Assembly: GCF_002953135.1 (NCBI RefSeq)
Contig: NZ_CP026373.1
Coordinates: 155,795-179,794, forward strand
Reading direction: 5' to 3'
Length of the DNA: 24,000 bases
DNA from: Sphingobium sp. SCG-1
GTDB lineage: Bacteria > Pseudomonadota > Alphaproteobacteria > Sphingomonadales > Sphingomonadaceae
Position numbers and translations under genes: made by a program. Shown piece by piece: positions 14,315 to 17,367 of this stretch. The notes under the pieces were generated by a model, which ran no database searches, was not told the origin of the DNA, and saw only the letters and a program-made list of their open reading frames with translations. Position 1 is the first letter of the stretch, and each line of letters opens with the position of its first letter.

Positions 14315-15106
14315 ATGGCAACAGTTGCAAATGCGACTCCGCTTGGGAGACCAAGCGATGATCGGAAGATTGTGAATTTTAAGATCCCCGCAATAGCCAC
14401 GGTAGGCCTTTTGGCGATCATGGTTTTCTACAGAACCTTTCAAAGGATGTTCGCCTGGACTGCGGGGCTCGATTCCACGGATCCGGTTTTCGACACTTAC
14501 TGGATGGGTCTACTCAAAGCTGAACTGGTATTAATTCCATTGCTCTGGGTTGGCGTGTGGTCTTACATTTGGTTCACGCGAGACAAAAACCTGTATTCAA
14601 TTACGCCTCGAGAGGAACTTCGCAGGTACTTTAATCTGGTTTTGTTCATTTTCGTTTACGCAGTTGCTGTCTGGTTTGCAGCGAGCTTTTTCGCGGAGCA
14701 AGATGCATCTTGGCACCAGACTGTCGTTCGCGACACCAGCTTCACACCGAGCCATGTGGTGCTCTTCTACGGCACCATGCCTTTGTACGTGACGTTCGGC
14801 GTCGGCTCTTTGCTTTACGCAACGACCCGTCTGCCAAAATATGCAGACAATATTTCGATTCCGCTGGTTCTAGCGGTGGCTGGTCCATTCATGATTCTCC
14901 CGAACCTGGGCTTCAATGAATGGGGCCACGCCTTCTGGATGATGGAAGAGGTGTTCACGGCGCCGCTGCACTGGGGCTTCGTTGTCATGGGCTGGACAGT
15001 CTTGGCTCTAGGTGGTCTGCTGCTGCAGATCGCGCAGCATATGATCACCCTTCTCAGGCAGATGGGCGAACTTGCCGAAAGCGAGGGTGAGGTCATCGCG
15101 GGCTAG
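14315..15106 (+). CDS. pmoC: copper membrane monooxygenase subunit C (PmoC/AmoC family)
   Basis: [20 protein letters not shown] gives D-x3-H-x12-H. [20 protein letters not shown] gives N-x3-H-x13-H. There are multiple TM helices, and a GGAAGGAG SD lies upstream of ATG 14315 (a GTG at 14312 is also possible). Confidence 0.93.
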   Translation: [263 protein letters not shown]

Positions 15107-15114
15107 TTCAGGAT

Positions 15115-15149
15115 TATTGCGCGAGATCGGCTCGGTGTCGGTTTCGCGC
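15115..15149 (+). other. intercistronic stem-loop between subunit C and A genes
   Basis: TTGCGCGA (15115-15122) and TCGCGCAA (15142-15149) are exact complements with a 19-nt loop. An A-rich tract follows and there is no U-tract. Confidence 0.4.
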
Positions 15150-15221
15150 AAAACGAAAAACAACGGTTACAGGGGGCGCGCATGCGCTTGGCATTTCGTC
15201 GCCGGAAGCATGGAGAGTAAG

Positions 15222-16076
15222 ATGAGAGACAATCCAGGACAAACAATTTATGGAATAAAGTGGTCGAAGGAAGGGGCAAAGCTATCGCGGACCTTCGACA
15301 TCATCGTCGCGGTGATCCTGTTGCTGGCGGTCGCCGGCGCGACTCATCTTCACTTCATGCTACTTGCGGGCGATTGGGACTTTTGGGTCGATTGGAAAGA
15401 CCGGGAATTCTGGGTGACGTTGACGCCGATTGTGGCGATCATGTTTCCAGCGGCCTTGCAGTATATGTTCTGGAAATATTTTCGTCTCCCGATTGCCGCA
15501 ACGCTGGCAATTGTGGGCCTGATGATCGGCGAGTGGCTCAACCGCTATTACGGCTTCCATCTGTGGTCCTATTTCCCAATGAGCATGGTGTGGCCCGCAA
15601 TGCTACTGCCGAGCGCACTAGCTCTGGATGCCATTCTCTTGCTCACCGGCAATTTCCTGTTGACTGCGATATTCGGCGGAATGGCGTTTTCTCTGCTGTT
15701 CTACCCTTCGAACTGGTTCATGTTGGCCCCATACAGATTGCCCGTGCAGATCATGGATTATCTTGCATCTGTGGGTGACGTGATGGGTTACTCGTTCACG
15801 CGAACGGCAACTCCAGAATATCTTCGGATGATCGAACGCGGCACGTTAAGGACATTCGGTGGACACTCCGCGACGGTGTCGGCCTTTTTTAGCGGCTTTG
15901 TATGCATATTAACATATATGGTCTGGTGGGGCTTTGGCGTCCTTTTCTCGCGCGTGATCACCGTCCCGAATACGTTCAAGAAGCTCCTTGGCCTGGTTCC
16001 AAAGGCAGCCGGAACGTCGACGCAGCAAGGGGGCAAGGATACTAAGCTTACAACAAGCACCGTGGGGGGGGTTTGA
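15222..16076 (+). CDS. pmoA: copper membrane monooxygenase subunit A (PmoA/AmoA family)
   Basis: Hallmark strings are [44 protein letters not shown] and [19 protein letters not shown]. ATG 15222 has GGAG 6 nt upstream (ATG 15210 is also possible). The track ORF start 15072 overlaps subunit C and is not family-like. Confidence 0.93.
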   Translation: [284 protein letters not shown]

Positions 16077-16080
16077 GAAC

Positions 16081-17367
16081 ATGCAGCTAATAATAGGGAA
16101 AACACGCAACATCTTCCGGCGCTTGACGGCAGCTTTGCTGCTGATCGTCAGCCTTGCCGGAGCTGGTTTGTCATCGCCGGCTTTTGCCCATGGTGAGCGC
16201 AATCAGGAACCCTTTTTAAGGCTCCGTACCGCTCACTTCTACGATGTAAAATGGAGTTCCAAATCGGTCCCAGTGAACGGTAGTATAATCATAACTGGCC
16301 GGTTTAGACTCTTTAAAGAATGGCCAGCCAACCTTCCCAAGCCAGACGTTGCATTTTTGGGCAATGGTACGCCAGGACCAGTCTTCGTGAGGACGGAAAG
16401 CTATATCAACGGGGTTCCGGCAATCCAATCTGCGCCGCTGGAGCTCGACCGAGATTATGCTTTCAAATTTGTGCTAAAGGCACGAATTCCTGGCCGTCAC
16501 CACGTCCACCCTATGATCAACGCCCAAGAAGCGGGGCCGCTACTCGGCCCGGGGGAATGGGTGACAGTGACAGGTTCCCATGCCGACTTCAAATTGCCTG
16601 TTCGGACGATCAACGGAACCTTCATTCCCAATTTGGAGACGTGGGGACTTGATCGCGTTTACTTGTGGAACGGCCTGTGGTTCGCCATTGCTATTGGATG
16701 GCTACTCTTCTGGCTGCGGCGCCCACTCCTCATCACCCGCTACTTGGCGGTGACCGAAGGCAAGGAAGAGGCTCTGATCTCGAACAAGGACCGCGTTGTC
16801 GGAGCAATCCTGCTAGCATCGACCATCGTGATCGTCTTCGTTGGATATGTCGTCACTGACAACGCCTTCCCGCGCACAATTCCTTTGCAAGGCGGTCGAG
16901 CGAGCGTCGAACCTTTGCCGTTCACCCCCGGTGCAGTGAAGGTGTATGTTACCAAGTCGACTTATGATGTGCCTGGCCGCTCCCTAAAAATTGAGATGAA
17001 TCTCACCAATGAGGGGCCAGCGCCAGTCCAACTGGGTGAATTCCTCACGTCGAATCTCCGGTTTATCAACGCGAGCGTTCCAGCAGCAGTAAAGGGTCTG
17101 GATCCAAACTATCCGCGCGATGTCGTGCCGGTAAATGGTCTAAAAGTTAGTGACAACCGGCCTATCGCCCCGGGCGAAACGCGCAAAATTGCTGTTGCGG
17201 CGACAGACGTAGCTTGGGAAAAAGAAAGACTGACGAGCTTGTTGAACGATCCTGACAACCTGGTGGGGGGACTCTTGTTCTTCTTCGATGCGGCCGGGAA
17301 TCGATCAATCAGCAACGTGTCTGGGCCTATGGTACCAGTCTTTACGGCAGAAACGGTGAAAGGCTGA
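16081..17367 (+). CDS. pmoB: copper membrane monooxygenase subunit B (PmoB/AmoB family)
   Basis: The signal peptide ends ..SSPAFA, and the mature end is HGERNQEPFLRLRTAHFYDVKW. The H-x-H string is GRHHVHPMINAQEAGPLLGPGEWVTVTG. There are two central TM helices and a C-terminal beta-rich domain. ATG 16081 lies 4 nt after the subunit A stop. Confidence 0.93.
   Translation: MQLIIGKTRNIFRRLTAALLLIVSLAGAGLSSPAFAHGERNQEPFLRLRTAHFYDVKWSSKSVPVNGSIIITGRFRLFKEWPANLPKPDVAFLGNGTPGPVFVRTESYINGVPAIQSAPLELDRDYAFKFVLKARIPGRHHVHPMINAQEAGPLLGPGEWVTVTGSHADFKLPVRTINGTFIPNLETWGLDRVYLWNGLWFAIAIGWLLFWLRRPLLITRYLAVTEGKEEALISNKDRVVGAILLASTIVIVFVGYVVTDNAFPRTIPLQGGRASVEPLPFTPGAVKVYVTKSTYDVPGRSLKIEMNLTNEGPAPVQLGEFLTSNLRFINASVPAAVKGLDPNYPRDVVPVNGLKVSDNRPIAPGETRKIAVAATDVAWEKERLTSLLNDPDNLVGGLLFFFDAAGNRSISNVSGPMVPVFTAETVKG

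Follow-up and report, generated by a model that had tools for sequence, protein, structure and literature searches.

Which substrate is oxidized by a copper membrane monooxygenase (CuMMO) that is encoded on a plasmid of a sphingomonad? This question is raised by a stretch of 24,000 nucleotides (nt) from Sphingobium sp. SCG-1 (contig NZ_CP026373.1, positions 155,795 to 179,794), which was analyzed as a whole and is hereafter called the window. It contains an operon for subunits C, A, and B of such an enzyme, here designated xmoCAB. The operon is located on a plasmid of 236,976 bp (237 kb), and the strain was isolated from soil at a major natural gas leak, a methane blowout site. An initial annotation of the window, made from the sequence alone, had described xmoCAB as a complete CuMMO operon of hydrocarbon or orphan type. 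Our trees place it in the hydrocarbon-type branch of the proteobacterial CuMMOs, and gaseous short-chain hydrocarbons are, on balance, its most plausible substrates. The sequence is public and automatically annotated, and its clade is known but uncharacterized; it is not a categorically new system.

The xmoCAB operon encodes a complete CuMMO

The operon consists of three intact genes on the plus strand (coordinates are those of the window):

14315..15106, + strand: xmoC, CuMMO subunit C, 263 amino acids (aa); Pfam AmoC, E = 4.6e-96; CuC (D-H-H) and CuD (N-H-H) ligand sets
15222..16076, + strand: xmoA, CuMMO subunit A, 284 aa, with a 52-residue hydrophilic C-terminal tail; Pfam AMO, E = 2.2e-97; 284/284 residues identical to WP_104955518.1
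16081..17367, + strand: xmoB, CuMMO subunit B, 428 aa; Pfam Monooxygenase_B, E = 8.3e-141; signal peptide, mature N-terminal His37, and CuB residues His141/His143

The open reading frames, the Pfam E values, and the alignments to solved chains agreed on a complete C-A-B operon, and every motif and copper ligand quoted in the initial annotation was found in the translations. PF02461, PF04744, and PF04896 were each matched over nearly the whole model by subunits A, B, and C, which places the proteins in the CuMMO superfamily. His37 of XmoB aligned with the mature N-terminal histidine of M. capsulatus PmoB, and H141-V-H143 aligned with the PmoB HVH motif (CuB). The D-x3-H-x12-H and N-x3-H-x13-H sets of XmoC aligned with those of subunit C of ammonia monooxygenase (AMO). 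A GTG codon at position 14312, one codon 5' of the ATG at 14315, would extend XmoC from 263 to 264 aa; an AAGGAG Shine-Dalgarno sequence is located 7 to 8 nt 5' of the ATG.

The CuC and CuD positions were identical in 67/67 aligned sequences and the CuB positions in 66/67, in every clade. Since the ligands are invariant across all clades, they carry no substrate information, as the initial annotation had stated, and ligand conservation was rejected as a substrate predictor. The solved structures were nearly equidistant as well. The scores against particulate methane monooxygenase (pMMO) and AMO were 272 versus 269 bits for subunit A, 249 versus about 260 bits for subunit C (for which these chains were the best PDB matches), and 396 versus 380 bits for subunit B. 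Across the subunits, identity was 42 to 52% to the nitrifier proteins and 43 to 53% to Pmo/Pxm.

It had also been noted that two strings in XmoA resemble AmoA of ammonia-oxidizing bacteria (AOB). These strings are real: one 11-residue motif is also present in the betaproteobacterial AOB (beta-AOB) reference, and RTFGGH is present in all three nitrifier references, where PmoA has RTFGKD. However, all 23 members of the SCG-1 operon's own clade have RTFGGH, and the overall identity of XmoA to nitrifier AmoA (49 to 52%) was no higher than that to PmoA/PxmA (52 to 53%). NCBI names the subunit products "methane/ammonia monooxygenase" or "bacterial ammonia monooxygenase." The AmoA/B/C_BACT label is non-discriminating, because methanotroph pxmABC (locus L086, on a Methylomagnum ishizawai plasmid) and many Bradyrhizobium proteins bear the same names. 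These NCBIfam models systematically over-annotate the Pxm, Bradyrhizobium, and SCG-1 proteins, all of which lie outside the nitrifier clade.

The operon belongs to the hydrocarbon-type branch

For phylogenetic placement, the reference operons were those of beta-AOB (L087), two of nitrifier type (the comammox-like L083, and L084, in which hao, haoB, c554, and cM552 are adjacent), and a Pxm operon (L086), with the actinobacterial Hmo operon L085 as the outgroup. A further 60-odd genomes were collected with the XmoA alignment. The Pmo reference clade consisted of Methylocapsa, Crenothrix, and Methylogaea. The tree of the concatenated CAB subunits was built from 838 columns and 65 taxa, and the A-only tree contained 94 taxa; percentages given for clades are bootstrap support.

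In the concatenated tree, the SCG-1 operon grouped with the metagenomic relative L082 (100%) and then with a Bradyrhizobium group (80%). A 22-taxon clade (100%) comprised sphingomonad, Bradyrhizobium, Beta/Rhodocyclales, soil alphaproteobacterial, and freshwater gammaproteobacterial sequences. A 44-taxon clade (96%) added the Cycloclasticus/Methylococcaceae-UBA group, and every nitrifier, Pxm, and Pmo reference fell outside it. In the A-only tree, a 72% clade joined SCG-1 XmoA with A1 and A2 of the ethane oxidizers ET-HIRO/ET-SHO (Methylococcaceae), with the ethylene assimilator Haliea ETY-M, with marine phmoA, and with Cycloclasticus. ET-HIRO/ET-SHO, Haliea, and Cycloclasticus are oxidizers of ethane, ethylene, or short-chain alkanes. 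Outside this clade were again those of the nitrifiers (86%), Pxm (100%), and Pmo (97%).

The operon was thus nested in no characterized pmo or amo clade. The nitrifier clade (100% concatenated, 86% A-only) excluded it, as did the Pmo reference clade (97 to 100%). Nitrosococcus was not represented in the trees; the SCG-1 operon is also outside the Pmo-side clade, of which Nitrosococcus is a member. Membership in PxmABC was contradicted both by the gene order, which is C-A-B instead of A-B-C, and by the Pxm clade (100%), which left the operon outside. When the subunits were placed one by one, the SCG-1 sequence fell each time into a clade free of references (C, 86%; A, 92%; B, 99%). Since the three subunits place alike, the operon is not chimeric. 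On these trees, the SCG-1 operon belongs to the proteobacterial hydrocarbon-type CuMMO branch, outside the methane and ammonia monooxygenase clades. This bears out the earlier description of a hydrocarbon-type or orphan CuMMO that is neither pmo nor amo.

The trees do not settle the nearest reference outgroup or the branching order inside the hydrocarbon clade. A scan of GTDB species representatives revealed no relative above 70%, and a tblastn search with XmoB against the PLSDB plasmids matched only Pxm and actinobacterial Hmo plasmids.

Subunit A tails and natural A-B fusions

The initial annotation had singled out the hydrophilic C-terminal tail of XmoA as unusual. The tail is indeed present but is not odd for the branch. 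SCG-1 XmoA has 52 residues past the last conserved helix, compared to 28 to 53 in other members of the hydrocarbon clade, 43 to 55 in nitrifier AmoA, and 19 in PmoA/PxmA. It begins with a conserved VPN-x-x-K-x-x-MGL, followed by a variable remainder. Judged by these lengths, the long tail is a feature of the clade and not an anomaly of the SCG-1 operon.

In a sister lineage, four contigs have a single continuous frame of 665 to 672 aa, with no stop codon, for xmoA and xmoB together (L034:10001-12016, L026:9998-11992, L028:5704-7707, and L029:5680-7683). This lineage consists of Xanthobacteraceae- and Bradyrhizobium-like metagenome-assembled genomes (MAGs) from soil and permafrost. The continuous frames look like a natural A-B fusion. 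In them, the A tail runs into the B signal peptide and the TQA|HGERNQ junction is retained, and thus the tail behaves like a linker into the signal anchor of B.

A copper-handling module follows xmoB

The initial annotation had pointed to acyl-CoA genes downstream of the operon. Such genes are present, but four copper-handling genes come first, directly after xmoB:

17461..18048, + strand: PmoD/AmoD-family periplasmic copper protein; match to 6CPD (solved PmoD), E = 4.2e-15; signal peptide, periplasmic domain, and C-terminal membrane helix
18096..18470, + strand: copC, periplasmic copper chaperone; Pfam CopC, E = 5.5e-18; NCBIfam copper_CopC, E = 6.6e-18, below its cutoff
18473..20476, + strand: copD with a fused C-terminal cytochrome c domain, 667 aa, putative copper importer; Pfam CopD, E = 3.9e-18, Cytochrome_CBB3, E = 9.8e-13, and Cytochrom_C, E = 1.9e-11
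20488..21012, + strand: lipoprotein-like protein, 174 aa; lipobox IASC; Met/His-rich HSEHNMAAMPGMGNMSDPGHDMSSMDD; DUF4399, E = 0.0057, below cutoff

The first of these proteins matched no Pfam or NCBIfam model. Its homology, its architecture, and its position directly 3' of subunit B place it in the PmoD/AmoD/AmoE family. It was 50% identical to orf5 (AmoD) and 28% identical to orf4 of the beta-AOB locus L087, and the conserved Cys and His of its N-terminal motif aligned with 6CPD. The 667-aa CopD-cytochrome c architecture was also found in L082 and in the sphingomonad locus L001. For the lipoprotein, we set the start at 20488 by analogy to the 173- to 174-aa genes in these two loci. Its homologs are located 3' of copD in Bradyrhizobium and other loci (41 to 50% identity), and its Met/His-rich composition suggests that it is probably a copper-binding accessory protein.

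The order after xmoB is thus PmoD-like gene, copC, copD-cytochrome c, and lipoprotein gene, followed by genes for an acyl-CoA dehydrogenase and a CoA-transferase. This layout is that of beta-AOB amoCAB-orf4-orf5-copC-copD, with one orf4/5-type gene instead of two. We counted neighbors in loci of at least 14 kb, 34 inside and 18 outside the clade; these counts are not phylogenetically independent. A PmoD-like gene was present in 34/34 in-clade loci and copD in 18/34, while copC was found in 25/34 in-clade loci versus 1/18 outside.

The copper genes at CuMMO operons also show a graded fusion. In the beta-AOB locus, copC and copD are separate (L087:7135-8755), in SCG-1 copC is followed by copD-cytochrome c (18096-20476), and in the comammox-like locus (L083:6327-8630) a single CopC-CopD-cytochrome c protein of 767 aa is encoded.

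Acyl-CoA, quinoprotein, and esterase genes flank the operon

Two genes of acyl-CoA metabolism follow the copper module:

21087..22877, + strand: FadE-type acyl-CoA dehydrogenase, about 600 aa; Pfam Acyl-CoA_dh_N, _M, _1, and _C; PDB 8PNG, E = 1.5e-143, and FadE5, E of about 1e-80
23166..24000, + strand: CoA-transferase of the 4-hydroxybutyrate/butyryl-CoA:acetate family, 5' part only, as the gene runs off the window; PDB 4N8H, E = 7.6e-67

The acyl-CoA dehydrogenase was 87% identical to its counterpart in L001 and 77% identical to that on a plasmid of Sphingobium RAC03. The CoA-transferase was 86% identical in L001, and its TIGR03948 (butyryl-CoA:acetate) match of 1.4e-28 was below the cutoff on the partial sequence.

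Upstream of xmoC, four further genes were detected:

10193..11080, - strand: divergent secreted or membrane-anchored alpha/beta-hydrolase (serine esterase), 295 aa; homolog profile match to esterases
11472..12419, - strand: quinoprotein relay system zinc metallohydrolase 1 (SoxH-like, metallo-beta-lactamase fold); TIGR04558, 337 bits (cutoff 300)
12416..13264, - strand: quinoprotein dehydrogenase-associated SoxYZ-like carrier; TIGR04557, 184.7 bits (cutoff 140)
13302..13841, + strand: pyrroloquinoline quinone (PQQ)-dependent catabolism-associated CXXCW-motif (rhodanese-like) protein; TIGR03865, 157.9 bits (cutoff 128)

The last three form a quinoprotein trio that also adjoins xmoC in L082 and is present on the RAC03 plasmid. 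No PQQ dehydrogenase itself was found in the window, only these three accessory genes. The statement that the window has no mxaF/xoxF, hao, or cycAB was correct. To deny any PQQ link was too strong, given that three PQQ accessory genes adjoin the operon.

In L082, the genes 5' of the trio (L082:2607-5179) include those for an EthD-like protein and for an outer-membrane protein of the OmpW family; an IS110 transposase and a plasmid gene of the PRiA4 type adjoin them. The OmpW family includes channels for hydrophobic substrates such as AlkL. These neighbors hint at a hydrocarbon context on a mobile element.

The SCG-1 esterase had no Pfam or NCBIfam match. An alignment of its homologs (n = 26) revealed an invariant GHSDGG, Asp213, His266, and seven invariant cysteines, and the homolog profile matched LC-Est1C (3WYD; 5e-14), feruloyl esterases, and an esterase of the polyhydroxybutyrate (PHB)-depolymerase family, with E values from 5e-14 to 1e-10. 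Homologs adjoin xmoCAB in about 30 loci from four proteobacterial classes (for example, L016:13057-13725, L020:12965-13678, and L069:11928-12632). In the neighbor counts, the esterase was present in 20/34 in-clade loci versus 3/18 outside; the latter three are uncharacterized lineages, and the Pmo, Pxm, and nitrifier reference loci all lack it. It has no obvious role in terminal alkane oxidation.

The operon lies on a mosaic plasmid and is under purifying selection

Mobile-element debris (6971..9973) marks the left edge of the operon-bearing block:

6971-7411, + strand: IS21 IstB fragment (NCBIfam/Pfam)
8327-8665, - strand: RelE/YafQ toxin (NCBIfam/Pfam)
8616-8897, - strand: RelB antitoxin (NCBIfam/Pfam)
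8975-9973, - strand: tyrosine recombinase (NCBIfam/Pfam)

The segment 8314-9774, which contains RelE/RelB and the tyrosine recombinase, had 92.3% DNA identity to a plasmid of Sphingomonas sp. NBWT7, a match far closer than that of the rest of the window to any PLSDB record. This identity indicates a recent exchange of a small module among sphingomonad plasmids.

Beyond the debris, YjdM and the following genes were found:

555-2888: malic enzyme (NADP-dependent, MaeB), 100% identical to the SCG-1 plasmid protein
3707-6022, + strand: hybrid histidine kinase with three MHYT repeats, PAS, kinase core, and receiver (domain matches)

The housekeeping-type genes seen in the initial annotation are present, but their setting is plasmid DNA and not a chromosomal core. 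The notion of a genomic island in a chromosome was dropped for that of a mosaic plasmid, the replicon being a plasmid. The MHYT-PAS hybrid kinase is located 8 kb 5' of the operon, with the mobile-element debris in between. For MHYT domains, sensing of O2, CO, or NO via bound copper has been proposed. No family match was obtained for the minus-strand ORFs in 6300-7700 and 10002-10487, and neither tRNA genes nor Rfam families were detected in the window.

A megablast search of 10000-24000 against PLSDB matched only the quinoprotein trio of the RAC03 plasmid. This plasmid, pBSY17_2 (L088, 8994-19528), has the same flanks as 11472-24000 at 58 to 79% protein identity, namely, the quinoprotein trio at one end and, at the other, the Met/His lipoprotein, the acyl-CoA dehydrogenase, and the CoA-transferase. 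A Tn3 transposase and a resolvase are located exactly in place of the xmoC-to-copD segment. In distant Bradyrhizobium loci, the lipoprotein and copD occur together, which makes a loss in RAC03 simpler to assume than an insertion in SCG-1, and the RAC03 plasmid is probably a natural deletion variant. Alternatively, the xmoC-to-copD segment may have been inserted in SCG-1.

The GC content at third codon positions was 0.51 to 0.66 for the operon versus 0.72 to 0.74 for the malic enzyme and kinase genes, and the clade of the operon mixes Alpha-, Beta-, and Gammaproteobacteria. Taken together, the plasmid location, the mobile-element borders, the lower third-position GC content, and the mixed-class clade make horizontal acquisition of the operon, as proposed in the initial annotation, a well-supported conclusion from sequence.

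Relatives that are 92 to 97% identical in protein were only 75 to 81% identical in DNA, and synonymous sites were saturated. Where it could be computed, the ratio of nonsynonymous to synonymous substitution rates (dN/dS) was 0.014 to 0.035 (xmoC, 0.014 versus L082; xmoA, 0.035 versus L001). These ratios and the saturated synonymous sites indicate genes under purifying selection and not a recent or decaying passenger, which argues that the operon encodes a functional enzyme.

Scans for sigma-70 promoters and for terminators were at chance level (7 versus 5.9 expected and 12 versus 11.5, respectively), as was the search for the sigma-54 consensus (30 versus 28.6), which found none 5' of xmoC. 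A perfect 6-bp inverted repeat, TGGCAC-N11-GTGCCA (13981-14003, + strand), is located in the 470-bp gap about 310 nt 5' of the xmoC start. It could be an operator. Since the region 5' of xmoC is not conserved with L082 at the DNA level, we make no regulatory claim.

Proposed function of XmoCAB and alternative explanations

With moderate confidence, we infer that XmoCAB oxidizes short-chain gaseous hydrocarbons, most probably C2-C4 alkanes and possibly alkenes. According to this proposal, copper would be supplied and inserted by CopC, CopD-cytochrome c, the PmoD/AmoD-like protein, and the Met/His-rich lipoprotein. In the inner membrane, XmoCAB would turn the alkane into an alcohol with O2 and with electrons derived from quinol. 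The alcohol would then be oxidized by a PQQ quinoprotein dehydrogenase encoded elsewhere, the three accessory genes of which would be those just 5' of the operon. The resulting C2-C4 acid would be activated by the short-chain CoA-transferase, and the FadE-type acyl-CoA dehydrogenase would then desaturate the activated acid for beta-oxidation. The link to a PQQ dehydrogenase and the roles of the esterase and the acyl-CoA genes are likewise inferred.

Independent data point to sphingomonads as consumers of such gases. When a gas seep was studied by stable isotope probing (SIP), Sphingobium and Sphingomonas ranked among the genera of highest abundance in the heavy DNA labeled with 13C-ethane and 13C-propane, yet the MAGs recovered included none of these two genera with a soluble di-iron monooxygenase (SDIMO) (PMC9213486). 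Furthermore, amoCAB of beta-AOB and comammox organisms is independently stated to have diversified from emoCAB and pxmABC of non-methanotrophs (PMC11135946).

Several points weigh against the proposed oxidation of C2-C4 hydrocarbons. The literature lists sequences of the 22-taxon clade type as "Xmo of unknown function," and no activity, expression, or growth data for SCG-1 or this clade were found there. SCG-1 also has a BmoX-like SDIMO, which could alone explain growth on alkanes. Outside the sphingomonad sub-clade (L001 and L082), xmoCAB is not linked to the quinoprotein trio and the acyl-CoA pair; on the RAC03 plasmid, these genes are found together although xmoCAB is absent, and thus they may constitute a unit of their own. 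The window contains no alcohol or aldehyde dehydrogenase gene. The three subunits passed the equivalog cutoffs of NCBIfam AmoC_BACT, AmoA_BACT, and AmoB_BACT (360/319, 345/290, and 537/336 bits). The trees were built by neighbor joining only, a distance-based method, with 100 bootstraps. Their deep A-only nodes, which join the SCG-1 clade to ET-HIRO A2 and Haliea, had a support of 20 to 31%, and thus the nearest characterized relative is not settled. Finally, the alkane CuMMOs of Polaromonas and Rhodoferax were not among the tree taxa. Experimental work on these betaproteobacterial enzymes was reportedly done by Rochman et al. in 2020.

An alkene monooxygenase that forms epoxides from ethylene or propylene, as proposed for the Haliea CuMMO, is an unlikely substitute for the alkane hydroxylase. 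Haliea ETY-M is in the same broad A-subunit clade, its A subunit is 56% identical to XmoA, and CuMMOs are promiscuous towards alkenes. However, the grouping with Haliea is weakly supported (20 to 63%), and the window contains no epoxide-handling genes (coenzyme M transferase, epoxide hydrolase, or glutathione transferase). The downstream CoA-transferase and acyl-CoA dehydrogenase suit acids derived from alkanes, and the source of SCG-1, a leak of natural gas and thus of alkanes, also disfavors alkenes.

To a similar degree, we doubt that the native substrate is something other than a C2-C4 hydrocarbon, such as a ketone, a cyclic alkane, or a compound whose ester product is cleaved by the neighboring esterase. 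There are precedents in the family: the CuMMO homolog PmoCAB3 of Methylacidiphilum acts on acetone (PMC8630023), and a Porticoccaceae CuMMO was implicated in methylcycloalkane use (bioRxiv 10.1101/2022.11.07.515388). The secreted serine esterase that accompanies so many loci of the branch would fit such a substrate, and no member of the 22-taxon clade has been characterized. Both the verrucomicrobial and the Porticoccaceae enzymes, however, are outside the SCG-1 clade, the latter being nearer to the nitrifier side in the A-only tree, and gaseous alkanes are favored by both the origin of the strain and the SIP data.

Methane, the dominant gas at the isolation site, is quite an improbable substrate. 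The blowout origin, the presence of all pMMO copper ligands, the similarity of the subunits to solved pMMO, which is as high as that to AMO, and the adjacent PQQ-dehydrogenase accessory genes would all fit a methane monooxygenase that gives Sphingobium methane oxidation. Against this stands the position of the operon outside the Pmo (97 to 100%) and Pxm (100%) clades. Neither a methanol dehydrogenase nor a C1-assimilation gene was detected in the window, and the literature search revealed no sphingomonad methanotroph. There is a correspondingly slim chance that XmoCAB is methane-active and that an ordinary heterotroph at the blowout site could gain methane oxidation from a transferable sphingomonad plasmid.

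The NCBI name implies a true AMO for heterotrophic ammonia oxidation, and this is very improbable. The three AmoA/B/C_BACT models were passed, the 11-residue AOB-like motif and RTFGGH are present, and the gene order xmoCAB-amoD-like-copC-copD mirrors that of beta-AOB. Yet the NCBIfam name is also given to methanotroph pxmABC and Bradyrhizobium proteins, the nitrifier clade excludes the operon at 86 to 100%, and the subunits are only 42 to 52% identical to those of nitrifiers. Moreover, no hao, haoB, cycA, or cycB was found in the 24-kb window, whereas such genes are adjacent in the nitrifier locus L084. The cycAB genes are treated as a marker of ammonia oxidizers (PMC11135946). XmoCAB may co-oxidize NH3 as a side reaction.

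It is barely credible that the mosaic plasmid carries the operon as a silent or decaying passenger: mobile-element fragments surround it, the RAC03 plasmid has the flanks without it, and SCG-1 has an alternative soluble monooxygenase, but all nine module genes are intact, the complete copper-accessory set is retained, and dN/dS was 0.014 to 0.035, with saturated synonymous sites, versus two independent relatives.

A less radical possibility than methane oxidation, with a similarly slim chance, is that the esterase, the quinoprotein trio, and XmoCAB form a previously unrecognized periplasmic pathway. If so, a copper-dependent switch between XmoCAB and the BmoX-like soluble enzyme would be conceivable, like that between the particulate and the soluble methane monooxygenase of methanotrophs.

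Implications

The search of the literature revealed no report of a CuMMO in Sphingomonadaceae or of the CuMMO and its module on the SCG-1 plasmid. With this operon, the hydrocarbon-type CuMMO branch now reaches into a family that is known for catabolic functions on plasmids. It is a candidate for the enzyme of the sphingomonads that were labeled by 13C-ethane and 13C-propane and for which no SDIMO-bearing MAG was obtained. The label "bacterial ammonia monooxygenase" on an enzyme that is phylogenetically distinct from nitrifier AMO can inflate nitrifier counts in genome and metagenome surveys. Since SCG-1 is cultured and its genome is complete, the strain would allow a direct test of what the enzymes of the entire "Xmo of unknown function" clade do, the many Bradyrhizobium copies included. 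Minor new clues to the biology of CuMMOs come from the branch-specific esterase neighbor and the natural A-B fusions.

Comparison with known CuMMO systems

One close counterpart is the "Xmo of unknown function" of Bradyrhizobium, which was noted first in strain ERR11 (Khadka et al. 2018). The Bradyrhizobium operons, for example those of B. niftali and B. forestalis, are sisters of the SCG-1 sub-clade (80% concatenated), with 62 to 74% identity per subunit, and are equally uncharacterized. They have the same module of xmoCAB, PmoD-like gene, copC, copD, and Met/His lipoprotein gene. The other SCG-1 neighbors, the esterase gene, the quinoprotein trio, and the acyl-CoA genes, are not found within 10 kb of them, and they are mostly found on chromosomal contigs, with one copy annotated as plasmid-borne.

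The Emo-type systems (ET-HIRO/ET-SHO, Haliea ETY-M, Cycloclasticus, and phmoA) are in the same broad clade (72% in the A-only tree; 96% for the Cycloclasticus/Methylococcaceae-UBA group in the concatenated tree). Like SCG-1, they have the order C-A-B followed by a PmoD-like gene and the same ligand sets. However, their A subunits are only 51 to 60% identical to XmoA, their hosts are marine Gammaproteobacteria and not soil sphingomonads, and their loci are mostly without copC, copD, and esterase neighbors.

The amoCAB-amoE-amoD-copCD systems of beta-AOB and comammox organisms share the fold, the ligands, and the operon architecture, including copC-copD and an AmoD homolog that is 50% identical. 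Their AMO also shares with SCG-1 the 11-residue motif, RTFGGH, and the long A tail. They form a separate clade, and have two AmoD-like genes versus one in SCG-1; no hao/cycAB was found in the window.

The subunits of pmoCAB and PxmABC are homologous (43 to 53% identity), with the same copper ligands and a PmoD partner. Nevertheless, these systems form separate clades (97 to 100%), Pxm has the order A-B-C, PmoA/PxmA are without the long tail, and SCG-1 is without nearby methanol dehydrogenase or C1 genes. The actinobacterial hmoCAB/bmoCAB, although only 33 to 45% identical to the SCG-1 operon and equipped with different accessory genes, resembles it in its setting: on the plasmid of Mycolicibacterium chubuense NBB4, it is likewise a plasmid-borne operon of the order C-A-B in a heterotrophic hydrocarbon degrader.

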